64,000 nt of DNA from Candidatus Levyibacteriota bacterium (GTDB taxonomy: Bacteria; Patescibacteriota; Microgenomatia; Levybacterales; UBA12049). How positions within the stretch are numbered: position 1 is the first letter of the stretch; the number at the start of each line of letters is the position of its first letter. The notes under the pieces are model-generated. The model did not search any database. It was given only the letters and a program-made list of their open reading frames with translations, and had not been told where the DNA came from. Of the stretch, positions 2,377 through 46,991 are shown piece after piece. The position numbers and the translations under genes were made by a program. The stretch is taken from positions 5,589-69,588 of the forward strand of contig JBBSGK010000002.1 of NCBI GenBank assembly GCA_038254115.1, given 5' to 3'.

Positions 2377-3387
2377 TTATAACCCATACTCACTATCAAT
2401 GGAATCCCTGACGCTCATTGTTACTATTTTATCAGCTCCCAAAAGCTCTGAAACTTTTACAAACTCATAACCTTTCTCTTTTAAAGCTCCTATTATTTTG
2501 GGCAGAGCATTTGCAGTCTCGGGTTCGTTTGGAAAACCATTCATATGGAGGACGATTATAGAACCATTTTTTACATTGTCCAAAATATTTTTTTCAATAA
2601 GTCCGCGGTCACCATTAAATCCATCCTGGCCCGCAACATCCCAATGCACGACTTTCAGGCCCTCCTTTTTCACATTTTCCAAATCAGTCTTTGAATAACA
2701 TCCGCCCGGAAATCTAAAATATTTATTTCCACTTTTACCGTATTCACTCAGGAGCTTCTGTGTTTTATTTATTTCTTCCTTATCCTGATCGTCTTTTGAA
2801 GGAGTTAGCCCGTAACAATGTCCATCGAATGATGGATGAGAGTAGGAATGGTTGGCAAGCTCAAACAAGGAATCGCCTGCCAGGAAACTTGTCTCTGTGG
2901 GATATGATTCGATCCACATCCCGCTTAAAAAAAGCGTTGCCTTTGTATTCGTGTTTTTGAGTATCTCAATTGTCCGGTGATCATAATAACTCTGAATTCT
3001 TCCGCGAGTTAAATTATTTTTCATCCGGGGAGTCATATCCGCGTCAAATGTAAGCGCAATTTTTTTCTTATCCGTCGGGCCGTGGAAAACGACGTCATCA
3101 TTTTTTGATACGGGACGGGGAATATTATTTTCACTGATTTGAGATAGGGGACTAATATCAGATAAGAGTTTGGTGTTTTCTGTAGCATAAACCGGAATAA
3201 TAAGTTTTTCCTTAAGCGGTATGCTGCCTGCCAGTACTATTATAATAAGGAGCATAGAAAACAATAAATTTTTATTTATGTTTATTACAGGTAGAGTAGG
3301 TAAGGAGTACTTTGGAGAGTAGGATATTTTGATTTGTACTTTTAAACCGAAAAATCCAAACTTGGCTTTTTTATATTTTTTTGCCAT
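2377..3387 (-). CDS. Polysaccharide deacetylase (NodB-homology domain), N-terminal membrane anchor
   Basis: Motifs TFDADM (metal-binding Asp-Asp), HSYSHP and IIVLHMNG match the carbohydrate esterase family 4 deacetylase core. One N-terminal hydrophobic span. Confidence 0.75.
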   Translation of the reverse strand: MAKKYKKAKFGFFGLKVQIKISYSPKYSLPTLPVININKNLLFSMLLIIIVLAGSIPLKEKLIIPVYATENTKLLSDISPLSQISENNIPRPVSKNDDVVFHGPTDKKKIALTFDADMTPRMKNNLTRGRIQSYYDHRTIEILKNTNTKATLFLSGMWIESYPTETSFLAGDSLFELANHSYSHPSFDGHCYGLTPSKDDQDKEEINKTQKLLSEYGKSGNKYFRFPGGCYSKTDLENVKKEGLKVVHWDVAGQDGFNGDRGLIEKNILDNVKNGSIIVLHMNGFPNEPETANALPKIIGALKEKGYEFVKVSELLGADKIVTMSVRDSIDSEYGL

Positions 3388-4233: not shown

Positions 4234-4352
4234 TTATATGAAATTATAAACTATTATTCACGCAAATTCTATGGCAATCAAAGTGTGTTAATATTTAAAT
4301 ATATTATTATAGGTTGTAATTAGTTTCTAAGTATGATACAATAGTTATAACT

Positions 4353-4841
4353 ATGAGAGAACAACATTTGAATTCAGGCGAGCAAGATTTATTTGATAAT
4401 TTGCATTTGGTAGAACTCGCAATTAAACATTTACCAAATCCAAAGGATAAATTTTCTTACGAAGAACAAGGTGATTATAACGACAGACTTGCTACCTTGC
4501 ATCTCGCAGGTTACATGATCGCAACTCGTGCAGGACGCCCACACCTGGCATCAACATATAAAGAAGATGCTCAATTAGAAAAACCTGATAGAGTAGGAGA
4601 GTTTGACAAGTTATCACCCGATGGGCAGCTGGAATTTTTGTTCATGAATGTCAGTGTTCACAGGACAGACTTCCAGCTCCCAACACTGCTTGCATCAATG
4701 ATTTCAGACCGCACTTTATCTAAAAACTGTCTTAGCAGGATACCCGCCATACCACATGAACCACAGAGACGACGTAACGGAATTACTAAACCAGGATTAT
4801 CACCAACATCATTTCCACCAAAGTACAAATATATTTTTTAG
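4353..4841 (+). CDS. Hypothetical protein (island gene 1), no recognisable domain
   Basis: 162-aa ORF, first gene of the GC-richer block. Upstream TTGTAA-N17-TACAAT promoter. Confidence 0.45.
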   Translation: MREQHLNSGEQDLFDNLHLVELAIKHLPNPKDKFSYEEQGDYNDRLATLHLAGYMIATRAGRPHLASTYKEDAQLEKPDRVGEFDKLSPDGQLEFLFMNVSVHRTDFQLPTLLASMISDRTLSKNCLSRIPAIPHEPQRRRNGITKPGLSPTSFPPKYKYIF

Positions 4842-4896
4842 ATATTTTATTATAAGTTATATTACTTCTTGACAAATAAAATTTTAGTGATATACT

Positions 4897-5487
4897 ATGG
4901 GGAATATGGGTAGAGAACGAGATGAAATACATGTTTCACTTAGACCAGATGACCTTGTAGGGTTAATGGCCAAATACGCCGGAAGAGCCCCAGGTGATGA
5001 AAGTCCCTTGGTAGTGAGAGCGAGAACCTTGGACAACCCTCATGATGGTGATTCTGGTAATAACCCATCCCTTAGATCAAGGCGAAGAAGATATGGACTA
5101 GCTGCTATAGCATTACCAGTAGCTGCGGGTTTGATATGGGTCGGACTGGACGGTAAATCCCCTATGGGTGGAAGTGCTGAGAAAAAAGGAAACACTACTC
5201 CCACAACCCTCCCGACAACTGTTAAGACTGAAGCACCGGCATCATCTGCTCCTCCTACAACTGCCGCACGGGTCGAGGCACCTCCACCATCTGCTCCTCC
5301 TACAACTGCCGCACGGGCCGAGGCAACTGCACCATCTGCTCCTCCTGCAACTTCTGCCGCACCGGCCGAAGCACCTGCGCCCACTCCTACAGAACCACCA
5401 AAATTATCGCCAGCACTCACACAGGGTTTACAAGATACTAATAGATTTCCCGGTAAAAGTGATCATAACACTGCGGTAGGTCAATAA
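4897..5487 (+). CDS. Hypothetical single-pass membrane protein with Pro/Ala/Thr-rich repeat tail (island gene 2)
   Basis: Hydrophobic span YGLAAIALPVAAGLIWVGL, then three imperfect 45-48-bp tandem DNA repeats (5233-5373) encoding APPTTAARxEAP units. The TTGACA-N16-TATACT promoter ends directly at the ATG. Confidence 0.55.
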   Translation: MGNMGRERDEIHVSLRPDDLVGLMAKYAGRAPGDESPLVVRARTLDNPHDGDSGNNPSLRSRRRRYGLAAIALPVAAGLIWVGLDGKSPMGGSAEKKGNTTPTTLPTTVKTEAPASSAPPTTAARVEAPPPSAPPTTAARAEATAPSAPPATSAAPAEAPAPTPTEPPKLSPALTQGLQDTNRFPGKSDHNTAVGQ

Positions 5488-5511
5488 GGCCGCAGATCAT
5501 ATTAAATAATT

Positions 5512-6537
5512 ATGGCAAGACATGAACAAGGGAAAACACATGAATTTAGACAGGCCTTACGAAGGTCCCAAGATCCCGAAATAGACGGAGATACCCCCCA
5601 ATGGAGTCACAGACCGAATTTGGATGAAAGAGGATTCACCAATATAAAGACACTAAAGCGCGCGGGATGGATAGTTGGAGGTGTTGTCGTAGGAACTGCG
5701 ACACTCGCATACTGTGTGCCACAAGCCGCTAAAGAAGGTGCAAGAAAAACAGCGCAAGATGTCCGTGACGCAGCCGGAAGATTTGTTTATAGTGAACAGC
5801 AAAGAACCACAATGGAAGGTATTATAGGCGGTGAGACGAACAAAAGAGAGGATAATATCGCTACCGACAGGACATATCTTGTTAAAATAAGAAGAGATAA
5901 ATTGCGTGAAATTCTAGGAAGGGAAGTGCCGGGGTGGATGACAAAAGGCGGAGGTGAGCTAACCATGCGTTATAAAGCGTTAGTTGGGGTGGACCACGCT
6001 GGTTTGATAGGCAATAATACCCTTTCTGAAGACGGTCTAAGAGTAACAACACGATTACCATTCCCCCACGTAATTGAAGCATTCCCGGATATAAGCGATA
6101 AACACCCTCACCTAGAAATTGAGAGTGGCGTAATTGAAGATTTCGTAGGTCAACTAAAAAGAATGGGAGGACAGGATTCAAAGAATCCTGACGAGATTCT
6201 TGCAATTGCTTTTGATTTGGCCCGAGTAGGAGAGAAAGCTGTTATTACAAATTTCATACAAAACGACTTTATGTTTCAACGATTTACAACGGACTGGATC
6301 ACCGCGCAGACCAAGAAAGATCTAGAAAAAACACGTGATGCTTTTCACTTGCCATATACGAGTGAAGATGTCATTTTCGAAGACAAGCCGGAGGTGCCGG
6401 TAAAAGATCGACTACCTGCAGGCGTATTTATCGATGCTGTGGACAAACCCAATGCTCATGGAGCTCCCCCTCCTCCGGAACCCAATCCGGCAATTGCCGC
6501 ACAGCCTAACGCTCCCAGACACGCGGCGGGCGGTTAA
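5512..6537 (+). CDS. Hypothetical membrane-anchored protein (island gene 3)
   Basis: 341 aa, N-proximal hydrophobic span GWIVGGVVVGTATLAYCV, Pro-rich C-terminus. Lies 24 bp after gene 2, so probably co-transcribed. Confidence 0.5.
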   Translation: MARHEQGKTHEFRQALRRSQDPEIDGDTPQWSHRPNLDERGFTNIKTLKRAGWIVGGVVVGTATLAYCVPQAAKEGARKTAQDVRDAAGRFVYSEQQRTTMEGIIGGETNKREDNIATDRTYLVKIRRDKLREILGREVPGWMTKGGGELTMRYKALVGVDHAGLIGNNTLSEDGLRVTTRLPFPHVIEAFPDISDKHPHLEIESGVIEDFVGQLKRMGGQDSKNPDEILAIAFDLARVGEKAVITNFIQNDFMFQRFTTDWITAQTKKDLEKTRDAFHLPYTSEDVIFEDKPEVPVKDRLPAGVFIDAVDKPNAHGAPPPPEPNPAIAAQPNAPRHAAGG

Positions 6538-6553
6538 TTTGGTAAAATAAAAT

Positions 6554-7204
6554 ATGAATGAAAGAAGACGAATTACAAGAAAATGCGTAGCGGTAACATT
6601 AGGTGTAGCAACTTTAGCTGGCGCGGATGCCATGGCTCTTCAGGCAAGCAAGCATGATTGGACAACGCATAGACAACGCGAAGCAATATTAGTTGCTGCA
6701 GCCCCCCCGTTGAAAGATGCCGCATGGGCTGTCGCGCCAGGTCCTGTAAAAGTTGAAAGACATTTGGGTCTGGATTTTCCTCAAGGGGAACGCGGACGGG
6801 ATACGGAAAAGGCTGATAAAGCACTTGCTTCTACTGACGGAATATTAGGAAAAGATCCCAACACAAAAGGATCCGTAGATACGGATAAACTCCGTGGATC
6901 AGTTCACTCTGATAATGATAACACTGCTGTAATGGCAAATATTTCAGGTGCCGCAAGTATATTGGAAGATAAAGTAAAAAAATTAGATTCCCAGGCATCA
7001 AAGGAGCGAAACCATGCGCTCGGCGAAGCAGCTCCTTTTGCTCTTGCCACACTTATTGGTGCGGGATATTTAACAATTAAGGCAGGGAGTTCTGTAGCTT
7101 ACCGAATTGGCCAGCGAATAAGACGCAAGCGTATAAAAAGAGAAGCCAGAGAAAGATTAGCCGAAAATGATTCTGACCGCCAGCCTGCACAACCCAAAGT
7201 ATAA
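6554..7204 (+). CDS. Hypothetical secreted/membrane protein (island gene 4)
   Basis: 216 aa. N-terminal signal-like RRRITRKCVAVTLGVATLAGADAMA, C-terminal hydrophobic span followed by a basic tail RIRRKRIKREARER. Confidence 0.5.
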   Translation: MNERRRITRKCVAVTLGVATLAGADAMALQASKHDWTTHRQREAILVAAAPPLKDAAWAVAPGPVKVERHLGLDFPQGERGRDTEKADKALASTDGILGKDPNTKGSVDTDKLRGSVHSDNDNTAVMANISGAASILEDKVKKLDSQASKERNHALGEAAPFALATLIGAGYLTIKAGSSVAYRIGQRIRRKRIKREARERLAENDSDRQPAQPKV

Positions 7205-7322
7205 GCACATAATATGTTTCTTATAACGTATTAAATACAATATCTTCTGTTCTTATAGCTTTTGTATTTAGCCTTATTACTCCTTGACATTTGAGGTATA
7301 TATTGATATACTATGACCCATT

Positions 7323-8981
7323 ATGGGAAGTAATCCCGAAATAGGAAGACGTAAGGAAGAAATACCTCGTAAAGATTTTCGAGTTACTGCTGAATGGGCA
7401 ATGGCACTTTTGGAAAAAGCCCAAGGTCTGCCTACCGTTGCTCCCGCAACCTCAGGGGAAAGCAGACGTAATCCCGGACTAGTTGCTCCCTCCCGGCCAG
7501 GAGGATTAGGGGATCGTGATGTCCAACCCAGTGGAATAATTATTCCTGAAGCTCACGTTAGAGGAGTGAGGAAAATAGTTACCTCCACATCTCCCGATGA
7601 GAAGGAGAGGAGACCCGAAACAGAATTGGAGAGATTTCAGAAAGTGTTTGATAAAGCCTGGAAAATTTCAGGACTTCCTGTAGAAGAAAAACCAAAAACC
7701 GTTGAACCCCAACCCCTATATACAGACAAATACACATATGGTGAAAGTGCTGTATATTTTCAAACAATGGAAGGAGCCGATGTAACAGAATTAATTAGAG
7801 CTCTTATGGACAAAGAACTATATGGGGAGGGTGATAACATTCTTTCTCCTGAAGGCAAAAAATGCTTATCTTTCTTGCTTGAGCATAGCGAAGAAGACTA
7901 CGGCAAGATTGGAAACCGGGCCGAAGGTATGTTTATGCATGCGCGTATAAATCATGAAATAAACATTCTAAAAAAAGCAGGGGAAACCGCCAGTAAAGCT
8001 GATCTATACCCTCAAGTAAAGAATGAATTTGCCCACCGGCGTGAACTTGTATTGCCGGGATACGGATTTGACTATTATAAGGTAACAGAATCAAAATTGC
8101 CTTTTATTGAAGAAGGTAAGGGCATGACTGATGCAACAGGAAATACAGCCACTCTAGATACCCCCGGGGATTTAAATGGTAGTGGAAGTTCTCGCTCCGG
8201 ACGCAGACGCAGACCCAGCCAAAGAACTGCAACAGCCGCTGTTGCATCAGTGGTAGCTGCTGCTCTAGCAGCGGCTGCTGTGACAGGCGTGGTTCCGGCT
8301 GAAGCTATATCAGGAATTCCATTAGCAGGAAGACTGGTAGATGCATCAAGTAAAACACCCAATTCAGCTTCCCACATCCACAAAAAAGGGGATAGAATGA
8401 CCGCAGTAATCCCAGCTAGTACATCTACTTCAGTAGCTACTACCGAAGCACCCAAAGTTACACCCGAAACCAAACCTCAAGTAACTGCCGATATTCCTTG
8501 GCTTAAATTGGACACAATGAACTGGTGCAATGACGCTATAAATGCCTACGCTATACTTCATGGAGCCGATCCTGATCTGGTAAAAATTTACGTTATGGTA
8601 AGAACAGCAGGTAATCCATTTATAAATAAACCCGGCGGCAAAGGAGTAGTGCTCATGACTAATGACTGGGCATCTGATGTTGCAAAAGGAATGGGGAAAG
8701 CCTCCTTTAACCTTATGGATCCAAATGAAAGTTTGGATATATTCTCCACATGGCTTGCAGTCGCAATGAATTTAACAAATGGAAACGTAGGTCTTGTTGC
8801 TGGTGTTTTTGATCGCGGGGATCCTGACCCTTCAGATTTTATCCAAACTGTAGCAGATTTATATGCTCAAAGAAAAGATTCTCAAAGTCCAGCCTACCAA
8901 AAGTTCTTAAGAGATAATGCGGGAATGATTGAAAATGCCCGCGTTGCCTTAAATAGTGCTGGTCTGATAAAACCGAAATAA
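7323..8981 (+). CDS. Hypothetical 552-aa membrane protein with conserved-looking Cys-containing C-terminal domain (island gene 5)
   Basis: Central hydrophobic span AAVASVVAAALAAAAVTGVV. C-terminal ~170 aa (WLKLDTMNWCNDAINAYAILHG...GGKGVVLMTNDWA) looks globular and may be a hydrolase, but its family is unassigned. Own promoter TTGACA-N17-TATACT at 7269-7297. Confidence 0.55.
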   Translation: MGSNPEIGRRKEEIPRKDFRVTAEWAMALLEKAQGLPTVAPATSGESRRNPGLVAPSRPGGLGDRDVQPSGIIIPEAHVRGVRKIVTSTSPDEKERRPETELERFQKVFDKAWKISGLPVEEKPKTVEPQPLYTDKYTYGESAVYFQTMEGADVTELIRALMDKELYGEGDNILSPEGKKCLSFLLEHSEEDYGKIGNRAEGMFMHARINHEINILKKAGETASKADLYPQVKNEFAHRRELVLPGYGFDYYKVTESKLPFIEEGKGMTDATGNTATLDTPGDLNGSGSSRSGRRRRPSQRTATAAVASVVAAALAAAAVTGVVPAEAISGIPLAGRLVDASSKTPNSASHIHKKGDRMTAVIPASTSTSVATTEAPKVTPETKPQVTADIPWLKLDTMNWCNDAINAYAILHGADPDLVKIYVMVRTAGNPFINKPGGKGVVLMTNDWASDVAKGMGKASFNLMDPNESLDIFSTWLAVAMNLTNGNVGLVAGVFDRGDPDPSDFIQTVADLYAQRKDSQSPAYQKFLRDNAGMIENARVALNSAGLIKPK

Positions 8982-9059
8982 TATTATGTATGAAAGAAAT
9001 GCGCCAGGAAATGTAGGATTACATCTTGGTTTGAAGTAAATATATATAGAATTTAACTT

Positions 9060-11837
9060 ATGGGTACTTTAGAAAAAAGATTAGGATTACGGGAACCATC
9101 TAAACCTGACAAAAGAGGAGCTGGTCATCCATTTGGTGAAGCTTTCACATTACTGGAGAAAGGCCATACCGGAGACTTTAATGCAGAACTCGCCGAGCTT
9201 GCAGCACGCTACAGAAAACCGCTGGAAGTTATTGCAAACATGCCTCCAGGAGTAAATGTGCCAGAAGCGGAAGCAGAACTAAACCTTGTTCTAAATACAT
9301 TAGGTCACGAACTCTTAGGACTCCTTCCTCCAGGTGATTTAGAAGATGTTCCAAGTGAAGAAGTTATTATTGCTCCAGGTACAGATAATAAAAGAAGGGG
9401 ATTAAGAGGGTTATCTCAAGGTAGAAAGCTAGGCACAACTTCGGCTCCTGATAAAAGTCCTAGACTAAAAAGAAAAAGGAAAGGCAAAGCCCAACCACCA
9501 GATGCGCCGGGATTGCCTTCAAAATCTGCACCTGTTGTTGAAGATGCATCTGAAAAGCCTGGACTTTTTACTCGAATAATACCTATTGATGATGAGGATA
9601 TATTTGGAGATCCGGAATCAGATGAAGGACTTTTTGAAAACAGAAGATTTCCAACAGTAACAATAGACGGAAGACAAATTCCTATATTAGGGTCTCCGGA
9701 TGATGACCTTGATCCGGATCATGATAGAATTTTCAAACCAGACACAACTGCTCTCAAAAGGCAGAGCGTTGCGCGCAGTATGGCTGTTGCAATGGCAAGT
9801 TCATTATTGGGTATAGATGTGGATCCTGACGAATTGACTGATGCTACAGAACCAGATCCCAAATCATTATGGTCAGCAAAAGCTGATCTGCACATAGCGG
9901 CAGATGTGATAAGTCCTACTCCACTGGCTGACCGTTGGGATAGCGCTATGGAAGTTTTATCTACCGGAGATCCGGTTACTACGACCCCTGACGAGACGCT
10001 ATTTGCCGGTATAGTGCAGCGTACATATCCCCCGGCAGATACCTCATCCTTGAATCCTGCAACTCATGCCTTAATCGTAGTGAAAGATTTTGCTAGGGAT
10101 AAATCAATTGGAAAAGCTGTGGAAAGTGCAAAACAAATTCTTGAGCTCATGTTGATGAGGTATAAAGAAAAAACAGCTAAAGAACTTGCGCTGCTTATTT
10201 CGGAGCAAAAAGATCCAGCTGTAATGGCGCGAGATGAAGCAATGATAAAAACCCTTATCGCAAGCGATGAAGATTTTTTTGATAAATGGGGAGTGAGTCC
10301 AAGTCATGAAACTTTAGTAGAGTCATTAAGAATCGTCGATGACGCAACAGGATTACTCAGAACTCGACAGCCCGTTGTCCGCGTAGATATACCTGTATTA
10401 GAAACAAAAGAAATAGTACCGGGAAATATACACAGAAGCTTAGCCGCAGCGGTGGCGGCAGTTGCTGCTTTACTTCCAAGTCAAGCAGGCCACCTCTTAG
10501 ATTCAGGTACTTCAAAGCCCAAACCCTCTGCTAAAACCCAATCAGTGGCCGGAGTACCGAAAGAATCAGTGGCCCAGAAAGTTCCTGATAAAGACGTACG
10601 GGCGTTGCCTGTTAATGATCCAGGAGCTTACGGATCAGGTGATAAAACTCACTGCGAAGGTCCGCCTATATCATTTGAGGGTGTAGAAAAAAAGCTTATA
10701 CCTGTTAGCACTCCGGACTTAAAAACTGGTAGACCAGGTGATTGCGTTAAAGCGCCGAGATATATTGTCATACACACGACCGCTTCTCCTGAGCCAACAG
10801 CTGAAGGAATTTATGAATATTTTGCAAGCGGAGCCGGAGGACGCGGTGTTGCATCGCAGTTTGTTATAGGAAATGATGGTCACACGATACAGATGGGGGA
10901 AACTCTAGCTAGCCAAGCCGATAGAATGTACCACGCAGCTTACAATAACGATGGGTCTATCGGTATAGAAATTACTGCTAAAGACATTTATAATAGCAAA
11001 TCGGAGGCGCCGACAGCGCAATATAAACAAACGCTTGCCTTGGTCAGAGCCCTAATGAAATTATATAACATACCGATTGCTGATCCGCAGCATAATTCAA
11101 CCTGGAGAGCTCCATCTAATAAATTCGATGATCCTCCTCCCGGCGTTTACGGTCATTATCAATTAAACCCTGTTAACCCTGACTCAAGAACAGATCCCGG
11201 GGAAGGTTTTTTTAAAGATCTTATTAATGACTTGCAATCACCCGAATCGGTACAGCCTCCGGCAACGGGGCCAGAACACATACCCGCAATCAAAGAACAT
11301 CTGACGCCGCCGAATTTAGATAGCAACGAAAATTCACAAATTAATATACCTTGGCTTTCCAAATCTATTCTTAAATACAAAGATAAAATTATCTCTGAAT
11401 CAGAAAAAAATGATATTAGCCCTGAGTTCGTTGCAATTATTATGGCAATCGAATCTGGAGGAGATTCAAGCGAAGTAAGTACTGCCAATGCAAAGGGCGT
11501 ATTACAAATTATTCCTTCTACAGCTGCCAGTATTGCAAAAGAATTGGGTATGGTAACTTATGATCTGCATAACCCGGATGACAACATAAAAATGGGAGTA
11601 CATTACTTGGGGCAACTGAAAAAATTATTCGGTAAAGAATCTCATGGACCATCATGGGACGAAACGATAAGACTGGTGTCTGCGGGATATAACGGGGGTC
11701 CTGGTGCCGCGAACAATATGAGAGATGGAATTTATACAAATAATGCAGGTCCGTTTCAAGAAACAAAAACTTATGCCGCTATGGCAGTTGAAATGTGGCA
11801 AAACAGACATAATCCTAACTACAAATCCCCACGGTAA
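9060..11837 (+). CDS. 925-aa bifunctional peptidoglycan hydrolase: Amidase_2 (PGRP-type N-acetylmuramoyl-L-alanine amidase) domain plus SLT lytic transglycosylase domain (island gene 6)
   Basis: Amidase_2 segment: YIVIHTTAS...SQFVIGNDG...YHAAYNNDGSIGIEI...GHYQLNPVNPDSRTDPGEGF. SLT segment: FVAIIMAIESGGD (catalytic Glu-Ser)...AKGVLQIIPSTA...SAGYNGGPG. Long acidic/basic N-terminal region with one hydrophobic span. Confidence 0.7.
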   Translation: MGTLEKRLGLREPSKPDKRGAGHPFGEAFTLLEKGHTGDFNAELAELAARYRKPLEVIANMPPGVNVPEAEAELNLVLNTLGHELLGLLPPGDLEDVPSEEVIIAPGTDNKRRGLRGLSQGRKLGTTSAPDKSPRLKRKRKGKAQPPDAPGLPSKSAPVVEDASEKPGLFTRIIPIDDEDIFGDPESDEGLFENRRFPTVTIDGRQIPILGSPDDDLDPDHDRIFKPDTTALKRQSVARSMAVAMASSLLGIDVDPDELTDATEPDPKSLWSAKADLHIAADVISPTPLADRWDSAMEVLSTGDPVTTTPDETLFAGIVQRTYPPADTSSLNPATHALIVVKDFARDKSIGKAVESAKQILELMLMRYKEKTAKELALLISEQKDPAVMARDEAMIKTLIASDEDFFDKWGVSPSHETLVESLRIVDDATGLLRTRQPVVRVDIPVLETKEIVPGNIHRSLAAAVAAVAALLPSQAGHLLDSGTSKPKPSAKTQSVAGVPKESVAQKVPDKDVRALPVNDPGAYGSGDKTHCEGPPISFEGVEKKLIPVSTPDLKTGRPGDCVKAPRYIVIHTTASPEPTAEGIYEYFASGAGGRGVASQFVIGNDGHTIQMGETLASQADRMYHAAYNNDGSIGIEITAKDIYNSKSEAPTAQYKQTLALVRALMKLYNIPIADPQHNSTWRAPSNKFDDPPPGVYGHYQLNPVNPDSRTDPGEGFFKDLINDLQSPESVQPPATGPEHIPAIKEHLTPPNLDSNENSQINIPWLSKSILKYKDKIISESEKNDISPEFVAIIMAIESGGDSSEVSTANAKGVLQIIPSTAASIAKELGMVTYDLHNPDDNIKMGVHYLGQLKKLFGKESHGPSWDETIRLVSAGYNGGPGAANNMRDGIYTNNAGPFQETKTYAAMAVEMWQNRHNPNYKSPR

Positions 11838-11931
11838 GCTTGAGTAAGCCCGTTTAATTTGTATCAGATAGTTTTTAAGAAATTTTTAGATCTATCCCTT
11901 TCATAGCAGTGTTTCCAAGATTTACACATTA

Positions 11932-13464
11932 TTACTTTGAATATGTTTCCTCGTATCCGGGGAAGAAGTCTGCTTTGTATTTGACTCCTAGCTTCTGAAG
12001 CATCTCCTCGTATGCCATGACCATAGGCTGAGGGCCTGAAATATAAAACAATTGAGACGCAGGATCTGGAACGTATTTTTTAATCATTTCCTCATTTAGC
12101 CTGCCCACTTCACCCTTCCAGCCATCAGGCGGATTTTCTGAAATTACGTATACTGTCTTTACCCCATTTTTTTCTGCTTTTTCCAAAAGCTCTTTGTAAG
12201 CGAATTCTGATGGATCGCGGGCTATGTAAAACAAGACTATTGGAAAAGTGAGTTTTTTATCCAGCATGTATCTGATAATGCTTACAAAAGGCGTTATACC
12301 GATTCCGCCGGCGACAAAAACATATTTCGTATCTGTCTCTTTGTCCAGTACAAATTCTCCCTCAAGATTTGTTGCATAAATTGAGTCTCCTGGATTTAAT
12401 TTGTTTAGCGCGCTCTTGAAACTGCTTGCCTTCTCAGGAATTTTAACTGCCAGTTTTACAGTGCTTTCAGTAGGGCTTGAACTGATTGTAAAATATCTTC
12501 TATTTCCGCGTGAGTCTGCATGCGGGTGGGGGAGAGTCCACTCCAAGAATTGGCCGGGTAAAAATGCAAATGACTTAACCGGCTCAAATACAAATTCCCA
12601 GATAGATTTGGCAATTTCTTTTTTGCTCTGCAGGACCAAATCATATTTTTCACTAAATCTGATGATTCTGAAAACCAGATTGGATACAAGCAGGGAAAGT
12701 TCCAGGGTATAAGAAACATTTAAATAATTTGCCAGGAATGTATAGACAAACCCGCAGAATATCCCAAAATATAGCCTTAATTTCCTATCAGCAGGACTTG
12801 TAATCGGCTCAGTGAGCATAACAAAAGTGAAGAAAAGAATTGGAGGAGATAGAAAAGCGCTTTTCAACAAATCCGGCAAACCCGCAATACCTACTGACTG
12901 GAAACTAAATACAGATAGAAAAAATGCGTAACTCAATACAAAACCGACGATCATATTAAACCTTTTCAGCTTGCGGATCATAAGCAATCCTCCAATAGCA
13001 ATAAACGGAAGCATGGTCTTGTCTCCTATCCACCAGCTCGCTCCCTGCCCGATCGCTACGGCTGTCACGGTAACCGCAATAGCTGCGGGATTAAAAATAT
13101 GCTGCTTTTTATACGCGATAAGGTACTTGGATGCCATGGAGATTACTCCGAGTATTGTTAGGAAAACAAGATTTTTGAGTAAAGGAAGAGGGCCTACTAT
13201 CAATGCCAGAATCGTTCCCGTGATAAGCTGTGACTCATAATTGGGTCGTACTTTAAATAGATAAGCAAAGACCTGATTCACAAGATATGAAATAAAAATC
13301 AGATAAAGCCCGGAGGTAAGCAGATCAATATAACTGTAGGGAATGATCTTTATAAAACTAAAAATTATTGCAAGAGAGTAAAGAGCTGTGAGGTAATAAA
13401 GCATCAGACGGTACATCGTTACTTTATTGAGGAGATTATCAAGTGGATTTAAAAACCGGTTCAC
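11932..13464 (-). CDS. Membrane-anchored FNR-type oxidoreductase: N-terminal polytopic domain fused to FAD-binding and NAD(P)-binding domains
   Basis: C-terminal RRYFTISSSP (RxYS FAD motif), GGIGITP (NAD(P)-binding), and a YISGP-type end. N-terminal ~290 aa very hydrophobic (several spans, FNPAAIAV). Confidence 0.6.
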   Translation of the reverse strand: MNRFLNPLDNLLNKVTMYRLMLYYLTALYSLAIIFSFIKIIPYSYIDLLTSGLYLIFISYLVNQVFAYLFKVRPNYESQLITGTILALIVGPLPLLKNLVFLTILGVISMASKYLIAYKKQHIFNPAAIAVTVTAVAIGQGASWWIGDKTMLPFIAIGGLLMIRKLKRFNMIVGFVLSYAFFLSVFSFQSVGIAGLPDLLKSAFLSPPILFFTFVMLTEPITSPADRKLRLYFGIFCGFVYTFLANYLNVSYTLELSLLVSNLVFRIIRFSEKYDLVLQSKKEIAKSIWEFVFEPVKSFAFLPGQFLEWTLPHPHADSRGNRRYFTISSSPTESTVKLAVKIPEKASSFKSALNKLNPGDSIYATNLEGEFVLDKETDTKYVFVAGGIGITPFVSIIRYMLDKKLTFPIVLFYIARDPSEFAYKELLEKAEKNGVKTVYVISENPPDGWKGEVGRLNEEMIKKYVPDPASQLFYISGPQPMVMAYEEMLQKLGVKYKADFFPGYEETYSK

Positions 13465-13471: not shown

Positions 13472-14464
13472 TTATATCACGTTTTTTGCTTCGTAATAAA
13501 CACCTTTTGTCGTACCGAGTTTTTTTACAAACCCCGCATCAGTTAATTTTTTTAGATCATATCGCAGTGTACGCTCATTTACAGCCATAAAACGTCTGCG
13601 TATTTGATCAAAATTGATAATTCTATGATCTTTTATAATATTTAGTATTTCTGTTCTTCTTGGAAGTAAATAATCCTCGTGCACAATTTCTTTCTTATTT
13701 AAAACCAGCTGCTTAGCATTGTCCGCCGTAAAAGCTATTGCCTCAAGCATAAATTCCAAATAACCGGTAACATCTTTTTCAGAATTTTCAAGTACCTGAT
13801 AATAGGTTGACCTATGATTATCCAAATATTCTTCAACTGAGATTAATCCCTTCATCCAATATCCGCCCTGTTTTAAAACAGATTGGATCAGCAATCTACC
13901 GACTCTTCCGTTTCCATCCAAAAAGGGATGTATTTTTTCAAAAGAATAATGAGAAAGGCAAGCGCGGATTGGTATAAATTGCTCCGAAGAACTATTTATG
14001 TATTCGAGAAGAGAATCAATAAGCTTTGGAATAATTGAAGGTGGAGGTGGCATATATATTGCAATACCTGCTGAATTAAAAATGGCGCTCATTTCTTTTC
14101 TGAACACTCCTGAATTAGAACTATTGTCCAAATTGCTCATAATAACTTTATGCCATTTTTTAATATCATTTTTTGTTATTTCTTTTTTATCTGCAATAGA
14201 GAGGGCATTAATTGCTTTGAGAATATTAAAGATCTCAATTTTTTTTATGTCATTTGAAGGTCTTGAATTTAATTCCTCAAGAGTAGTGGGGTTTCCTTCA
14301 ATTCTTGCGGAAAAGAGAGAACTTTTAAGTGAGGATTGACGGCGGATATTAATCTCAACATCCAATGGAATTTCAATTGATTCAATTACTGCCTTGCTTG
14401 CTTCTATTGAGGAAAGGTGTTGAGAAATAATGTTCGTTAATGAATATTTAGTAGGAATAAGCAT
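13472..14464 (-). CDS. Fic family protein (class II, with intramolecular inhibitory motif) plus C-terminal winged-helix
   Basis: Fic active-site motif HPFLDGNGRVGR. Upstream inhibitory SxxxEG motif SARIEGN. C-terminal ERTLRYDLKKLTDAGFVKKLG resembles a wHTH. Confidence 0.8.
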   Translation of the reverse strand: MLIPTKYSLTNIISQHLSSIEASKAVIESIEIPLDVEINIRRQSSLKSSLFSARIEGNPTTLEELNSRPSNDIKKIEIFNILKAINALSIADKKEITKNDIKKWHKVIMSNLDNSSNSGVFRKEMSAIFNSAGIAIYMPPPPSIIPKLIDSLLEYINSSSEQFIPIRACLSHYSFEKIHPFLDGNGRVGRLLIQSVLKQGGYWMKGLISVEEYLDNHRSTYYQVLENSEKDVTGYLEFMLEAIAFTADNAKQLVLNKKEIVHEDYLLPRRTEILNIIKDHRIINFDQIRRRFMAVNERTLRYDLKKLTDAGFVKKLGTTKGVYYEAKNVI

Positions 14465-17522: not shown

Positions 17523-18253
17523 TGGAAGCTTTAATTTTATCTTTTTTTGCATTTATCTCGACAACTCTTGGCGGGTTTGTCGGCCTTCGTAATAAATCAC
17601 GTCTTCACCTCATTATGAGTTTCACAGCAGGAGTGTTACTGGCAGTTTGTTTCTTTGATATTCTCCCTGAGATGTTCAACATTACTACAAAAAATAATTT
17701 AGATATAACTTTCGGTCTTGTGGCAATTGTCACAGGTTTTTTACTTATTCATGTCCTCGAAAAGTCTGCTCTAATTCATCACTCACATGAACACGAATAC
17801 GCGACTCACACCCACAAACACCCAACTGTTGGGCGAATTGGAGCAGGGGGTCTTGCATTCCACAGCTTGCTTGATGGAGTGGGAATTGGGCTTGGATACC
17901 ATGTAAATCCGCACGTAGGACTTCTAATCGCTATTGCCGTGATAGCTCATGATTTTTCAGATGGACTCAATACTGTGACTATAATGCTTACTCACAAAAA
18001 CACCCAGAAAAAAGCTATTATTTTCCTCTTAATTGATGCTGTTACTCCAATTATTGGAGTTCTTTCGACGTATTTATTTACAATTCCTACAAGTATTCTG
18101 CAACTATACCTGGGCTTTTTTGCAGGATTTCTTCTCTATATAGGAGCAAGCGATTTACTGCCCGAGGCGCACAGCGAACACAGCTCATATAGGATGATTG
18201 GACTTACAATTGTGGGAGTAGTATTTATTTTTGTGGTGACGCGTTTTACCTAG
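17522..18253 (+). CDS. zupT: ZIP-family divalent metal (zinc) transporter ZupT-like
   Basis: HSLLDGVGIGLGY, AIAVIAHDFSDGLNT and GASDLLPEAH are ZIP signature helices with His/Asp ligands. 8 predicted spans. Confidence 0.8.
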   Translation: MEALILSFFAFISTTLGGFVGLRNKSRLHLIMSFTAGVLLAVCFFDILPEMFNITTKNNLDITFGLVAIVTGFLLIHVLEKSALIHHSHEHEYATHTHKHPTVGRIGAGGLAFHSLLDGVGIGLGYHVNPHVGLLIAIAVIAHDFSDGLNTVTIMLTHKNTQKKAIIFLLIDAVTPIIGVLSTYLFTIPTSILQLYLGFFAGFLLYIGASDLLPEAHSEHSSYRMIGLTIVGVVFIFVVTRFT

Positions 18254-19209
18254 AGGAATTTTCCGATTTCTTTTTTAAGTCTTATTAAGCTTTCTTCGTC
18301 AACGAAAGAATAGGCAATAACTTTTTTCCCCATTTTTTCAAATACTTTTATATTTTTAATTACAAATTTTTCATCAAACAAATCTGTTTTTGTAAGAAGT
18401 ATAATTTCAGGTTTTTCAAGAAGCAGGGGATTGAATTTCTCAAATTCGGATCTTACTGTTTTGTATCTTTTCTTTGCATCATCATCAGATAGCTCGATGC
18501 AGTGAATTATCAATTTCGTTTTCTCAATGTGTTTTAAGAAAGTTATTCCAAGACCCTTACCGGTTGACGCGCCTTCTATAAGTCCTGGTATATCAGCAAT
18601 AGGACGTGATCCCATCATACCGATATTGGGCTCAAGAGTTGTGAAAGGGTAATCAGCGATTTTTGGTGTTGCATTAGTAAGGGCGGTGAGTAGGGTACTT
18701 TTCCCGGCATTTGGCAGTCCGATCAGACCAATCTCAGCAATGAGTCTCAGCTCAAGAAAAAGAATTTTTTTCTGCCCTGGTGTACCTGATTCCGCATACG
18801 TCGGCGCCTGGGTAACTGATGTTTTAAACTCCGTATTTCCACGTCCGCCTTTTCCTCCTTTGGCAAGAAGTACAGGGGTTGTTATGTCTGTAATTTCATA
18901 AATCTTATCTGTATCAACATCTGTGATTTTTGTTCCGCGGGGGACGTAGATTGTCATGTCCTCTGCATTTTTCCCAAAAAGATTTTTGGATTTACCGTCA
19001 ACTCCTGATTCGGCAGTTAATTTCTTTTTGAAGCGGAAGAGACGAAGATCATTTATATTGTTGGATCCCTGAAAGTATATATCGCCCCCATTACCGCCAT
19101 TGCCGCCATTTGGTCCGCCCCGCACATGCTGTCCGTCTCTTAGAAATGTAGATGCGCCATTGCCCCCACCCCCGGCCTTAATAGTGATTGTTACATTATC
19201 AACAAGCAT
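18250..19209 (-). CDS. obg: GTPase Obg (short form lacking a C-terminal extension)
   Basis: Gly-rich Obg fold MLVDNVTITIKAGGGGNGASTFLR...GGPNGGNGGNGGDIYF, then G-domain GLIGLPNAGKSTLL...DIPGLIEGAS. Confidence 0.85.
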   Translation of the reverse strand: MLVDNVTITIKAGGGGNGASTFLRDGQHVRGGPNGGNGGNGGDIYFQGSNNINDLRLFRFKKKLTAESGVDGKSKNLFGKNAEDMTIYVPRGTKITDVDTDKIYEITDITTPVLLAKGGKGGRGNTEFKTSVTQAPTYAESGTPGQKKILFLELRLIAEIGLIGLPNAGKSTLLTALTNATPKIADYPFTTLEPNIGMMGSRPIADIPGLIEGASTGKGLGITFLKHIEKTKLIIHCIELSDDDAKKRYKTVRSEFEKFNPLLLEKPEIILLTKTDLFDEKFVIKNIKVFEKMGKKVIAYSFVDEESLIRLKKEIGKFL

Positions 19210-24905: not shown

Positions 24906-26195
24906 CTACTTATTTTTAATAGAAGAAACAAGAATCTTATCAACTCTATTCCCATCCATATCCATTACTTCAATCTTCAAATTATCTACCTCCAATTTAT
25001 CTCCCGTCACAGGGATACGCTCAATTCTATCCATTACAAATCCTCCAATCGTATGAAAGTGCCCGGACTTTTCGGCAGGAAGTTTTTTAATACCAAAATG
25101 ATCTTTAAATTCATCAATTGGTACCGTTCCGTCAACAAGAAATGATCCGTCATCCCGTTTTATAAATTCCTTTTCCTCAAGCTGATTAAGATTTGGAAGA
25201 TCTCCGACTATAGCCTCCAATATATCATTTAGAGATACCAATCCCTGAACATTTCCATACTCGTCAATTACAAGCGCAACATGAATTCCGGATTTCTTAA
25301 ATAGCTCAAGAACTTTTAATCCGGTTGTTCCCTCTGGAACAAATAGAGGCTTGTGCAGATGTTTTCTTAAATCTATTTCGCCCTCTATGAGAAAATTGGT
25401 TAAAATATCCTCTGTTCTTATTACTCCAAGTATTTTATCAAGACTGTCCTCAACAACCGGAAAATACGAATGCGGATTTTGAGATATTCTTTTTTTTAGA
25501 GTAGCAAACTTGCTGTCAACGTCAAGATAAACTATCTCAGCCCTGTGAATCATAAGGGATTGCACTTTCTTATCACTCATCCTAAAAGTCCGCTCTACTA
25601 TATCCTTCTCAGCAATTTGAAATACCCCCGCGCGCGTTCCCTCCCGAATAAGCATCCTTATCTCTTCTTCACTTACAGGCGGATCTTCTTTTGAAGTGAT
25701 CCTGAACAACCTTAGGATAAAATCAGTTGACGCACTAAGAATGACTATGAGGGGAGAAGCAATAATTGATATGTAATTCATGGGAAGAGCTAGTAGCTTG
25801 GCAAATTTTTCAGGATTGTTAAGACCTATTCTTTTGGGAACAAGTTCTCCAATTATTAATGATAGATATGTAATCGCTGCAACTACCAATATAAGCGCCA
25901 AAGTTTCGCTATACGGAGCAAAGAATGGATAAGCTCTAAGATAATTGGCGACATTTGCCGTAATTGTCTTTTCCCCAAAAGCGCCTGCAAAAATTCCGAT
26001 AAATGTCATACCGATCTGCGTCGTTGAGAGGAATCTGTTGGGGGACTGAGACAGATCAAGCGCCGCCTGCGCATTTATATTTCCATCATGAGCAAGCTGC
26101 TTGAGACGGGATTTGCGCGCTGAGATTATGGCAATCTCTGCCATGGCAAAAAATCCATTCAGAACAATCAGCAAAAGAACGATTAAAATCTCCAT
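24906..26195 (-). CDS. Hemolysin-family membrane protein CorC/HlyC (DUF21 + CBS pair + CorC_HlyC transporter-associated domain)
   Basis: N-terminal 4-TM DUF21 (AMAEIAIISARKSRL), tandem CBS region, C-terminal PVTGDKLEVDNLKIEVMDMDGNRVDKILV. Confidence 0.8.
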   Translation of the reverse strand: MEILIVLLLIVLNGFFAMAEIAIISARKSRLKQLAHDGNINAQAALDLSQSPNRFLSTTQIGMTFIGIFAGAFGEKTITANVANYLRAYPFFAPYSETLALILVVAAITYLSLIIGELVPKRIGLNNPEKFAKLLALPMNYISIIASPLIVILSASTDFILRLFRITSKEDPPVSEEEIRMLIREGTRAGVFQIAEKDIVERTFRMSDKKVQSLMIHRAEIVYLDVDSKFATLKKRISQNPHSYFPVVEDSLDKILGVIRTEDILTNFLIEGEIDLRKHLHKPLFVPEGTTGLKVLELFKKSGIHVALVIDEYGNVQGLVSLNDILEAIVGDLPNLNQLEEKEFIKRDDGSFLVDGTVPIDEFKDHFGIKKLPAEKSGHFHTIGGFVMDRIERIPVTGDKLEVDNLKIEVMDMDGNRVDKILVSSIKNK

Positions 26196-26769: not shown

Positions 26770-27366
26770 ATGAGAAAAATTTTTGTGCTCGAATTTATTA
26801 CTATGGATGGCGTCATACAGGCACCTGGCGACTCCAAAGAAGATGCAGCCGAAGGCTTCAAATATGGTGGTTGGATGGGGCCATATTTTGGAAAAGATGA
26901 GATTGCGGGTCTGGAGATGGAGAAACAAATGAAGAAGACAGCTGGCCTGCTCCTCGGACGCAATACATATGACATCTTTGCGGGATTTTGGCCTAAAAAT
27001 ACCGAGTCTTGGCCACAAGTAAACAAAATCACTAAATATGTTGTCTCAAAAACCCTCCAAAAACCCACATGGGAAAATACTATCGTTATAAAAGACATTG
27101 AAGCATTAAAAAAACTCAAAGACTCGGACGGTCCAAACCTCCAAGTCTATGGAAGTGCAAATCTAATTCAGTCACTAATGGAGCAAGATTTGGTTGATGA
27201 ATTTTGGCTGAAAATATTTCCTGTTACTCTCGGGACAGGAAAACGGTTGTTTGACAAAGGCACTATCCCTGTATCTTTCAAGCTCTTCGACTCTAAAATT
27301 TCCCAAAATGGTATCATTTTTGCATACTACAAGCGTGCAGGAGATGTCAAAACGTCTGAAGTGTAG
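26770..27366 (+). CDS. Dihydrofolate-reductase-family protein (RibD C-terminal/YwjB-like reductase domain), paralog 1
   Basis: FITMDGVIQAPG, LLLGRNTYDIF, VYGSANLIQSLM, FPVTLGTGKRLF. 198 aa, typical size for the family. Confidence 0.7.
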   Translation: MRKIFVLEFITMDGVIQAPGDSKEDAAEGFKYGGWMGPYFGKDEIAGLEMEKQMKKTAGLLLGRNTYDIFAGFWPKNTESWPQVNKITKYVVSKTLQKPTWENTIVIKDIEALKKLKDSDGPNLQVYGSANLIQSLMEQDLVDEFWLKIFPVTLGTGKRLFDKGTIPVSFKLFDSKISQNGIIFAYYKRAGDVKTSEV

Positions 27367-27482: not shown

Positions 27483-28094
27483 ATGAGGAAAATCATCACT
27501 ACTACATTTATAACTCTTGATGGCGTTATGCAAGCTCCTGGAGGACCGGATGAAGATACCTCAAACGGCTTCAAGTACGGAGGTTGGCAGCTTCTGGGCT
27601 GGAATCAAGAGGATGAAGTGGCAGACAAGATTCTGGACAGCTTTATGAAGACTCCTTTTGAGCTGCTCTTGGGAAAACGCACCTACGAAATCTTTGCAGC
27701 ATACTGGCCAAACGACAAAAAAGAGCCAAGTGTGGCAAATCCGTTCAACAGTACGAAGAAGCATGTGGTCGCACATAAACCTTTTAAACTTTCATGGAAC
27801 AATTCTGCGCTTATTACGGGAGACGTGATTTCGGAAATAAAAAAGCTTAAAGATTTAGACGGTCCCGACCTGTGGGTGTGGGGTAGCGGCAACCTCATAC
27901 AAACGCTTCTAAAACATAATCTGATAGATCAAATGCATATCTTGACATACCCCATTACTATTGGCAGCGGTAAAAAATTATTCGCCGAAGGAACTCGTCC
28001 TGAAAAATTCACTCCGGTAGACACAAAAATCACCTCAACAGGCGTAATATTTGCAACCTACGAACCCTCAGAACAACTCAAAATAGGATCTTAA
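27483..28094 (+). CDS. Dihydrofolate-reductase-family protein, paralog 2 (tandem duplicate)
   Basis: FITLDGVMQAPGGPDED, LLLGKRTYEIFAAYWP, VWGSGNLIQTLL. The upstream ~40 bp (TTCAATGAATTAACGGTnTnGTAGAATTGnTTAAATGAG) duplicates that of paralog 1. Confidence 0.7.
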   Translation: MRKIITTTFITLDGVMQAPGGPDEDTSNGFKYGGWQLLGWNQEDEVADKILDSFMKTPFELLLGKRTYEIFAAYWPNDKKEPSVANPFNSTKKHVVAHKPFKLSWNNSALITGDVISEIKKLKDLDGPDLWVWGSGNLIQTLLKHNLIDQMHILTYPITIGSGKKLFAEGTRPEKFTPVDTKITSTGVIFATYEPSEQLKIGS

Positions 28095-32676: not shown

Positions 32677-33408
32677 TTATATCTGTCCCGCGCTTTGCAT
32701 TCTTCTGGCGCATCCGGGAAACTGTGTATGTATACTTGACCTCGCAACAAGTCTTTGAACTGCTGCTTTCTGTACGTCAATTGGCGCAAGATCAGCCCTT
32801 GCATATCCGGTATTCATGCTATTCCAAGTTCCCGCTGAGAACTGAAAAGCTCCATAATATCCGTTTCCGGTATTTTTGGCAGGATCCATTCCTGCCTCGC
32901 AGCTTCCCAAAGCATTAATCTGCTCATCAGTTAATGTTTTCGGCGCGTTTGCAACTATATTTGCCGCAGGAACCTGACGCGCGGCAACTGCAGCTTGGTA
33001 ATGAGCTATTGGAGCGTAAGCATAAGTGTTAAGAGGTACTTCGGGTGCCAAACGGTCAGCAAGCTCTGTCTTTAAAATCTCAGGCTGTTCCGTTTTTGTC
33101 TTGCGGATTTTCAAAACTGTTCCAGGCTCTAATTGCGCAGCATTTTGAATCTGAGGATTCTCATTCCAAATATTTGTCCAGTAGTCCTCATTTCCATAGT
33201 ACTCTTGTGCCAGCTTTGATAAATAATCCCCCTCTTGGACAACATAAGTAGAAGAGTCAGTTTGCTCCAAGACTTGGCTGAACTTATAATGCACCGTTGG
33301 CGTTGGAGTTGGCGGCAAGGATGTCGTCAAAACGGATGATGCCAAGAATCCTGCGAGTAAAGTAATAATCATATTAAAAATCAAAACCAACTGCTTTATT
33401 AAAAGCAA
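32677..33408 (-). CDS. Secreted LysM-domain protein with C-terminal Rpf-like (resuscitation-promoting-factor-type) transglycosylase domain
   Basis: N-terminal hydrophobic anchor. LysM: YVVQEGDYLSKLAQEYYGNEDYWTNIWNENPQI...GTVLKI. Rpf-like: CEAGMDPAKNTGNGYYGAFQFSAGTW...VQRLVARSS. Confidence 0.7.
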   Translation of the reverse strand: MLLIKQLVLIFNMIITLLAGFLASSVLTTSLPPTPTPTVHYKFSQVLEQTDSSTYVVQEGDYLSKLAQEYYGNEDYWTNIWNENPQIQNAAQLEPGTVLKIRKTKTEQPEILKTELADRLAPEVPLNTYAYAPIAHYQAAVAARQVPAANIVANAPKTLTDEQINALGSCEAGMDPAKNTGNGYYGAFQFSAGTWNSMNTGYARADLAPIDVQKAAVQRLVARSSIHTQFPGCARRMQSAGQI

Positions 33409-38147: not shown

Positions 38148-38516
38148 ATGCAGGATCCAATTTACCGCGAAATTATTCTGGAACACTGGCAAGACCCTCA
38201 AAATTACGGGGTAGTGGATAATGCTGATTTTGATGTAACTGATCTCAATCCGCTTTGCGGAGATGAGATACGCATTACCGGAAAAATAAAAAATGGCAAG
38301 TTGATAGATATCGGCTTTGTAAGTGAGGGCTGCGCAATATCCAAGGCATCAGCATCACTTTTTACGGAAAAAATAAAAGGAGAATCGCTTTCGGATATTA
38401 AAAAACTCGGCCCGGATGATGTCCTGGAAGAGTTGGGCATAGAACTTACACCGGCACGTACAAAATGCGCCCTCCTGATTTATTCTGCTACCAAACAAAC
38501 TCTTAAATCTTTTTAG
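38148..38516 (+). CDS. sufU: SufU/IscU-like zinc-dependent sulfur transfer protein
   Basis: YREIILEHWQDPQNYG...NPLCGDEIRITGKI...GCAISKASASLFTE. ATG at 38148 immediately follows the sufS stop at 38144-38146. The ORF-track TTG at 38121 is less likely. Confidence 0.8.
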   Translation: MQDPIYREIILEHWQDPQNYGVVDNADFDVTDLNPLCGDEIRITGKIKNGKLIDIGFVSEGCAISKASASLFTEKIKGESLSDIKKLGPDDVLEELGIELTPARTKCALLIYSATKQTLKSF

Positions 38517-40475: not shown

Positions 40476-40476
40476 A

Positions 40477-44798: not shown

Positions 44799-44853
44799 AA
44801 TTTTAATTATACACCCGCCGTTGTTTTCTTTTCGTCTAACATCCTGAACCCAC

Positions 44854-46972: not shown

Positions 46973-46991
46973 AAATTGATTTTAGCAAATC

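Follow-up and report, generated by a model that had tools for sequence, protein, structure and literature searches.

The 64-kb stretch of DNA analyzed here (the window) contains, at 4340-11840, a cassette of six plus-strand genes, g1 to g6, for which a tentative function is proposed from sequence: the controlled, stand-alone opening or remodeling of the cell's own wall by a membrane-anchored hydrolase complex. The last gene encodes a fusion of an amidase with a lytic transglycosylase, the gene before it encodes a transglycosylase-like paralogue with a replaced catalytic residue, and the arrangement is conserved elsewhere, with all six genes in order in a second contig and a shortened form in three genomes. 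Domain annotation across the 64 kb covered open reading frames (ORFs) of at least 150 aa. The six ORFs were found at exactly the coordinates given by an earlier sequence-only reading of this DNA and are listed here with the hydrolase-type domains of g5 and g6.

4353-4841, plus strand: g1, ORF of 162 aa
4897-5487, plus strand: g2, ORF of 196 aa
5512-6537, plus strand: g3, ORF of 341 aa
6554-7204, plus strand: g4, ORF of 216 aa
7323-8981, plus strand: g5, ORF of 552 aa
8490-8978, plus strand: SLT-like domain of g5 (residues 390-552), pairwise match to the SLT domain of g6 with E 3e-6
9060-11837, plus strand: g6, ORF of 925 aa
10752-11201, plus strand: Amidase_2 domain of g6 (PF01510; residues 565-714), Pfam score of 66.4 bits against a cut-off of 26
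11388-11720, plus strand: SLT domain of g6 (PF01464, GH23; residues 777-887), Pfam score of 73.2 bits against a cut-off of 21.3

Proteins encoded by the cassette

The g6 protein consists of a variable acidic N-terminal region, a conserved juxtamembrane segment (residues 392-475), a hydrophobic span, a linker, the amidase and, finally, the lytic transglycosylase. The span is a weak, Ala-rich one of ∼13 residues, placed by a hydropathy scan at residues 460-472 (nt 10437-10475). The Amidase_2 and SLT assignments made for the 925-aa protein in the sequence-only reading both hold, with Pfam scores above their cut-offs. Within the amidase, His572 and Glu637 are matched in an alignment by their equivalents in PlyG and PlyL, and His699 and Asp712 lie in a GHYQL...TDPG motif located by inspection only. 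The SLT domain retains the catalytic Glu798-Ser799 pair, the Gln of GVLQ and the Tyr of GYNGG, and matches lytic transglycosylase structures at 1.5e-10. Judged by these motifs, g6 is shown to carry intact predicted MurNAc-L-Ala amidase and lytic transglycosylase domains, in agreement with the earlier description of the protein as a dual hydrolase.

An exhaustive phmmer search with g6 against 1.84 billion representative proteins returned 5010 matches. With the exception of P0009, these spanned either the amidase (47-55% identity) or the SLT domain (about 40-45%) only; P0009 also matched the juxtamembrane segment 392-475 (shuffle z 17.6). P0009 and three further proteins (P0023, P0035 and P0041) have the layout of g6 with a LAS-type peptidase (M74-like) in place of the amidase, and g6 was the only amidase-SLT fusion among the 150 best matches. 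A scan of species-representative genomes placed the SLT subfamily in 79 loci, 64 of them titled Saccharibacteria or Saccharimonadales. In the SLT loci examined in detail, apart from L002 (see below), the gene encodes a short protein of ∼180-260 aa in an unrelated neighborhood, composed of a transmembrane (TM) span and the SLT domain with one exception. The SLT domains of g6 and g5 belong to the same subfamily as this short Saccharibacteria protein ("slt 2" in one record), with 36-44% identity, an IPW start motif and an SPT..RW tail. The short protein has the TM span and SLT domain only, whereas g6 adds ∼540 N-terminal residues and the amidase, and g5 is inactive. When g6 was the only query, the genome scan gave no match. 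Word-indexed protein searches with g6 and with a full-length alignment were swamped by low-complexity words and returned essentially the query alone, and the same type of search with the SLT alignment returned short SLT proteins alone.

The g5 protein resembles g6 in overall build and comprises an N-terminal domain of ∼295 aa, an RRRR sequence, a TM span at residues 306-324 (nt 8238-8294), a Thr/Pro linker and the SLT-like domain. Here, the catalytic Glu is replaced by Arg427, and the Gln of GLMQ and the Tyr of YNGG are also lost. The replacement of the catalytic Glu extends to all three known copies of g5, with Arg in the window and in L088 and Lys in L002. The homologues are gene 5 of L088 (z 7.6) and a 522-aa protein of L002 (z 8.2 for the N-terminal part and 23 for the C-terminal part). 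On these substitutions g5 is a member of the SLT fold family that is predicted to be catalytically dead, and not an enzyme. The sequence-only reading had stated that five of the six proteins match no family. This stands for the libraries Pfam, NCBIfam, PHROGs and PADLOC, in which g1-g5 had no match apart from low-complexity noise for g2, but not for the C terminus of g5, given its similarity to the SLT domain of g6. Sequence searches of solved structures with g3 and g5 gave no match.

Twin-arginine-like motifs precede hydrophobic spans in several of these proteins, as RRRR or RRR in g2, g4 and g5 of the window and as RRRFLG, the canonical twin-arginine form, in two L002 proteins (8915-10483 and 7260-8099). 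In the g5-like proteins the motif lies 265-295 residues from the N terminus. An internal Met directly before the motif in L002 hints at insertion of the twin-arginine translocation (Tat) type or at an alternative start.

The hydropathy scan bore out the hydrophobic spans previously noted in g2 (residues 66-84), g3 (51-69) and g5 (306-324), as well as the signal-peptide-like start of g4. The conserved first gene, g1, encodes a protein without a hydrophobic span that is predicted to be cytoplasmic. In g2, ∼65 charged N-terminal residues and an RRRR sequence are followed by the TM span and a Pro/Thr/Ala-rich external stalk. A 15-aa repeat in the stalk corresponds to a tandem repeat of 45 nt × 3.2 at 5233-5378, which is the sole repeat found in the cassette region and is likely to be a site of length variation. 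The g3 protein has an N-in TM span and an external region of ∼270 aa. The g4 protein starts with a signal or anchor span (RRR, a hydrophobic stretch and AMA), continues with ∼135 external residues and ends in a TM span with a basic tail; its DWTT.H motif is common to a 233-aa protein of L002. By sequence and predicted topology, g2, g3 and g4 are shown to be small bitopic membrane proteins and g1 a small soluble protein. Neither the 79 SLT loci nor the type IV secretion loci yielded a match to g1-g4 in iterative profile searches.

The position of g3 is that of a DUF4230-like gene in the shorter cassettes described below. The L002 counterpart matches DUF4230 (PF14014) with 38.9 bits against a cut-off of 27 (E 1.2e-9) and the L086 counterpart shows a faint match, whereas g3 itself has no Pfam match even at E 1. 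A profile-profile comparison (hhalign) of the g3 position between the two cassette forms gave a weak link, with E 0.035. Assignment of g3 to DUF4230 was thus not demonstrable.

Conservation and origin of the cassette

Five cassette loci were compared, namely the window, L088, L002, L085 and L086. The same six-gene order as in the window was found in L088, a 15.7-kb contig with a G+C content of 0.40. Its six plus-strand genes are of similar sizes (158, 199, 390, 247, 434 and 728 aa, compared with 162, 196, 341, 216, 552 and 925 aa in the window), and the gene-by-gene comparison with the window is as follows.

g1 and L088 gene 1: 34% identity over 122 aa, E 4e-15, Smith-Waterman z 23.5
g2 and L088 gene 2: shuffle z 5.7, same architecture
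g3 and L088 gene 3: z 0.2, no detectable similarity, with position and topology the same
g4 and L088 gene 4: 38-40% identity, E 6e-35
g5 and L088 gene 5: shuffle z 7.6, Arg at the position of the catalytic Glu
g6 and L088 gene 6: 41% identity in the SLT region and 36% in the juxtamembrane segment

On sequence comparison, g1, g4, g5 and g6 are clearly homologous to their L088 counterparts. A shorter cassette is present in L002, L085 and L086, flanked on one side by (secE-)nusG-rplK-rplA and on the other by a nucleoside triphosphate (NTP)-transferase gene, which in L085 and L086 is followed by glycosyltransferase and PAP2 genes. This form consists of the DUF4230-like gene, a gene for a doubly anchored protein of ∼250 aa and a g6-like gene, with a g5-like gene in L002 only. 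A weak profile-profile link was obtained at the g4 position between the two cassette forms (E 0.0085). The surroundings of the shorter cassette are an envelope-biogenesis neighborhood.

The cassette loci have G+C contents of ∼0.40-0.43, and the housekeeping proteins of the window are 36-51% identical to those of the fetched Saccharibacteria loci. The cassette may be a lineage-specific one, confined to uncultivated low-GC relatives of Saccharibacteria (Patescibacteria). L002 (DATLNW010000101.1) bears the label of a Lysobacterales metagenome-assembled genome, yet has a G+C content of 0.43 and a Saccharibacteria-type gene content; a 1-kb block at 1001-2000 reaches 0.62. It is probably mis-binned and possibly chimeric.

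The sequence-only reading had taken the region for a horizontally acquired island encoding a new, self-contained envelope-spanning or cell-attacking machine. The compositional contrast on which this drew is real: the G+C content of 4340-11840 is 0.435, compared with 0.399 in the left flank and 0.394 in the right flank, and no other 7.5-kb stretch of the window is as high. The individual examples also hold (0.58 at 8161-8260 and 0.53 at 10441-10540, compared with 0.35 at 2401-2500), and the two high values overlap the Arg/Ala-rich hydrophobic segments of g5 and g6. Resolved by codon position, the six cassette genes exceed the 46 other window genes in GC1 (0.573 versus 0.491) and GC2 (0.472 versus 0.356) and fall below them in GC3 (0.305 versus 0.342). 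The share of Ala, Pro, Gly and Arg is 0.336 in the cassette genes and 0.219 in the others. Thus, the G+C excess is confined to codon positions 1 and 2 because the encoded proteins are rich in these four residues. Also in favor of an island are a distinct codon usage (considered below), the failure of g1-g4 to match a family in any library, with g5 lacking a library match but SLT-like, and the finding that all six proteins are singletons at 90% identity. Given that housekeeping proteins of the same contig are likewise singletons, except for a 56-aa fragment that clusters with SufB, this orphan status reflects an unsampled lineage and not an island.

Horizontal acquisition is therefore not supported, since GC3 is low and no integrase, tRNA or repeat boundary accompanies the cassette. 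The nearest tRNA gene lies at 26635, no flanking or boundary repeats were found around the cassette, and no recombinase domain was present in the annotated window ORFs. Neither ATPase, relaxase, integrase nor phage structural gene was detected among these ORFs, as the sequence-only reading had stated, and no channel or pilin gene was found. Together with the conserved chromosomal position in three related genomes, these data make the island very unlikely, and composition and synteny largely refute it. A complete new machine is likewise not supported, as this conserved cassette of the chromosome encodes only hydrolases and small bitopic proteins and lacks any energizing or channel component; the word "undescribed" is fair for the cassette, but an undescribed system was not borne out.

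A prophage lysis cassette, or the remnant of a virion-associated lysin, is hardly credible. PHROG profiles for endolysins and lytic tail proteins do match both catalytic domains of g6, but at the level of domains only. In 50,697 phage records, tblastn with the amidase-SLT portion of g6 gave no match, a scan of viral contigs gave three weak SLT matches, and no phage gene was present among the annotated window ORFs. With only remote SLT matches to this part of g6 on plasmids and viral contigs, prophage and plasmid origins were both rejected.

Proposed function and its alternatives

In the proposed mechanism, g5 and g6 would be held in the membrane of the producing cell by their hydrophobic segments, with N-terminal domains in the cytoplasm and C-terminal domains reaching the cell's own wall. 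The N terminus of each is placed inside because basic residues precede each hydrophobic span. The amidase of g6 would strip stem peptides, after which the transglycosylase would cut the denuded glycan to leave a local hole. By analogy with the dead LytM proteins that control amidases, the inactive domain of g5 may bind glycan and position or gate g6, and the cytoplasmic domains of both proteins could allow control from within the cell. Accessory wall-spanning or scaffold roles would fall to g2-g4. The likely purpose would be a local opening or remodeling of the wall for growth, division or the insertion of a surface structure.

Several observations weigh against this proposal. The nearest relatives of the g6 amidase are hydrolases in type IV secretion loci; therefore, the cassette might serve a secretion system elsewhere in the genome. 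A Ser-Gln-Ala site follows the short g6 span, so that cleavage could release the catalytic part instead of leaving it anchored. No similarity is detectable between g3 and its positional counterparts (z 0.2 with L088; profile-profile E 0.035), and single-sequence AlphaFold models were unusable, with mean pLDDT (predicted local distance difference test) values of 33.3 for g3 and 34.6 for g5. Finally, the synonymous codon distance of the cassette is 0.583, compared with a mean of 0.369 (standard deviation 0.063, maximum 0.515) for background blocks of the same size. The shift is towards A-ending codons, the opposite of that expected from a G+C-rich donor. With these points counted, stand-alone action on the cell's own wall remains the preferred account, at a probability approaching one-half.

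The relatives of g6 bear most directly on an alternative in which the cassette would act in trans, opening the wall for a type IV secretion system or type IV pilus whose genes lie elsewhere in the genome; g6 and g5 would then take a VirB1/PrgK-like role and their cytoplasmic domains would dock on a secretion ATPase. Of five looked up from among the closest amidase relatives, four lie in Patescibacteria type IV secretion loci beside dnaN and dnaA; the contig of the fifth, P0014, is cut off just upstream. Three of the four (P0025, P0022 and P0027, encoded in L090, L091 and L092) are built like g6, with a TM span between a long N-terminal region and a C-terminal amidase that is 47-52% identical to that of g6, and each is encoded immediately 3' of virB4. 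In these loci a PrgI gene, or a gene in the PrgI position, and a TraC-like gene come before and a PEGA protein gene after, with type IV secretion pilin genes in two of the three. P0007, which has the best-matching amidase (55% identity), contains the LAS module of the g6-like family as well and is encoded four genes downstream of virB4, and in L084, reached through the LAS domain, VirB6-like, PrgI and VirB4 genes are followed by amidase, LAS and SLT genes. Peptidase and lysozyme homologues encoded downstream of virB4 are reported to be essential in Southlakia epibionticum (PMC12102498; PMC10633639). These relatives substantiate the earlier link to envelope-spanning machines. By sequence, the hydrolase modules of g6 and those of Patescibacteria type IV secretion loci appear to have a common origin, and their distribution shows that, within this group, such loci and stand-alone cassettes exchange wall-hydrolase modules. 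Service to a secretion system is nevertheless unlikely, if a serious contender. No type IV secretion genes were found in the five cassette loci (annotated window ORFs, L088, L002, L085 and L086), where VirB4, VirD4, VirB6, PrgI and pilin domains were all absent; g1-g4 show no similarity to genes of the type IV secretion loci searched; and the shorter cassettes stand in an envelope-polysaccharide neighborhood.

A weapon directed at a host, with g6 released or presented at the contact zone to digest the host wall for nutrients, is doubtful. Such a role would suit the predominance of Saccharibacteria among the nearest SLT relatives (64 of the 79 loci), the cultivated members of which are obligate epibionts (PMC10633639). 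It would also suit the possible signal-peptidase sites after the hydrophobic spans (AEA in g5 and SQA in g6) and the fast-evolving N-terminal regions and shuffled hydrolase modules (amidase, LAS and SLT), as in arms-race proteins. Against it, no immunity-like gene or toxin-delivery domain was found, the SLT domain is closest to the short membrane-anchored SLT protein carried by most Saccharibacteria, and obligate epibionts do not usually possess the full branched-chain amino-acid synthesis that is encoded in the window. In a more speculative and still less probable version, an ultrasmall bacterium living as an epibiont or predator would use the cassette as a self-contained device to breach walls, with no need of a secretion ATPase; g6 would be cleaved after its short span and delivered, together with a glycan-binding g5 and stalk-like g2-g4, to the host surface.

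In the post-virB4 hydrolases of Patescibacteria, as in g6, a long N-terminal region that lacks a signal peptide is followed by a hydrophobic span and at least one peptidoglycan hydrolase domain; amidases 47-55% identical to that of g6 and the LAS (M74-like) module of the g6-like family are also found among them. By contrast, they are translationally coupled to virB4 and lie near pilin, PrgI, TraC-like and PEGA genes and dnaA, whereas the cassette has none of these neighbors, g6 ends in a Saccharibacteria-type SLT domain and its partner is a dead SLT protein. The secretion loci L090-L093 adjoin dnaN/dnaA, and several small bitopic proteins are interspersed among their wall hydrolases, which in L093 include the product of a CHAP-like gene identified by eye only.

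In Gram-positive conjugation systems, membrane-associated PrgK (pCF10), TraG (pIP501) and CwlT (ICEBs1) open the wall locally with a glycan-cutting and a peptide-cutting domain (cited in PMC12102498). They resemble g6 as membrane-associated wall hydrolases of two activities, but they pair an SLT or muramidase domain with CHAP, NlpC/P60 or LytM and not with Amidase_2, and their genes belong to mobile elements that also encode a relaxase and ATPases, unlike the cassette. No sequence similarity of g6 to these conjugation-system hydrolases was found beyond the SLT fold. In the SpoIID-SpoIIP-SpoIIM engulfment complex of Bacillus, the anchored amidase SpoIIP and the lytic transglycosylase SpoIID, which acts on peptide-stripped glycan, are combined with a membrane scaffold. 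The two-step chemistry would be the same as that proposed for g6, but the families are unrelated, the activities reside on separate polypeptides and the role is in sporulation. EnvC and NlpD are catalytically dead LytM proteins that activate cell-separation amidases, and EnvC is controlled from the cytoplasm via FtsEX. They may serve as a model for g5, in which a degenerate hydrolase domain would be retained as the regulator of an active hydrolase; their fold is LytM and that of g5 is SLT, and the g5-g6 interaction is putative.

Sequence context and significance

Promoter-like boxes of their own precede g1, g2, g5 and g6, and three of the sites are listed.

4314-4342, plus strand: promoter-like site before g1, TTGTAA-N17-TG-TACAAT, -10 box ending 10 nt before the ATG
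4869-4896, plus strand: promoter-like site before g2, TTGACA-N16-TGATATACT, abutting the start codon (leaderless type)
7284-7312, plus strand: promoter-like site before g5, TTGACA-N17-TGATATACT, ending 10 nt before the ATG

The sequence-only reading had described two internal promoters sharing the motif TTGACA-N16/17-TGATATACT. The motif and the first site are as described, but the second lies 15 nt from the position given (7269-7297). A TATAAT-like box ending 5-11 nt before the start codon was present at roughly half of the 52 window genes checked, typically those that follow an intergenic gap; therefore, such promoters are not special to the cassette region. Examples on the minus strand are the genes at 728-2365, 2377-3387, 11932-13464, 18250-19209 and 24906-26195, and further boxes lie upstream of 21641, 22638, 26770, 27483 and 60583. 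A Shine-Dalgarno-like word within 20 nt of the start was found at only 5 of the 52 genes. The leaderless-type arrangement looks widespread in the window, and leaderless mRNAs may be common in the organism.

Close to the cassette, a polysaccharide deacetylase gene (2377-3387, minus strand) lies one gene (∼1 kb) to its left. To its right, 11932-13464 (minus strand) encodes an unusual 510-aa protein, 36% identical over its full length to a protein of the Saccharibacteria locus L006, that joins an NAD-binding reductase domain to an NQR2/RnfD-like membrane domain, and 13472-14464 (minus strand), two genes from the cassette, encodes a Fic/DOC-domain protein with a C-terminal winged-helix motif. Tandem RibD_C paralogues (26770-27366 and 27483-28094, plus strand) are 45% identical and have nearly identical upstream regions, including the promoter-like box. 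A further wall enzyme, a LysM plus Rpf-type transglycosylase-like protein, is encoded at 32677-33408 (minus strand). At 54944-55510 (plus strand), flanked by three tRNA-Leu genes, lies a gene whose 188-aa product has a signal-like start and, in the motif "IAMQES", a resemblance to lysozyme-like or SLT enzymes; neither Pfam nor the solved structures gave a match for this protein. The branched-chain amino-acid pathway is complete, at 38503-52349 and 57431-58705, and consists of leuA/B/C/D, ilvB-like, ilvC, ilvD, ilvE and threonine dehydratase genes. Saccharibacteria are said to lack amino-acid synthesis; the wall hydrolases of the window are nevertheless closest to those of that group.

How ultrasmall Patescibacteria remodel walls, their own and possibly that of a host, is largely unknown, and most of their envelope genes are unannotated. 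The cassette offers a compact, testable unit with a rare amidase-lytic transglycosylase fusion and four unannotated protein families; for two of these, g1 and g4, homologues are clear in a second contig. Of most interest is the long-kept inactive transglycosylase with a basic residue in place of the catalytic acid. If the dead domain does control the active enzyme, it would provide a transglycosylase counterpart of the principle by which dead LytM proteins act as activators.

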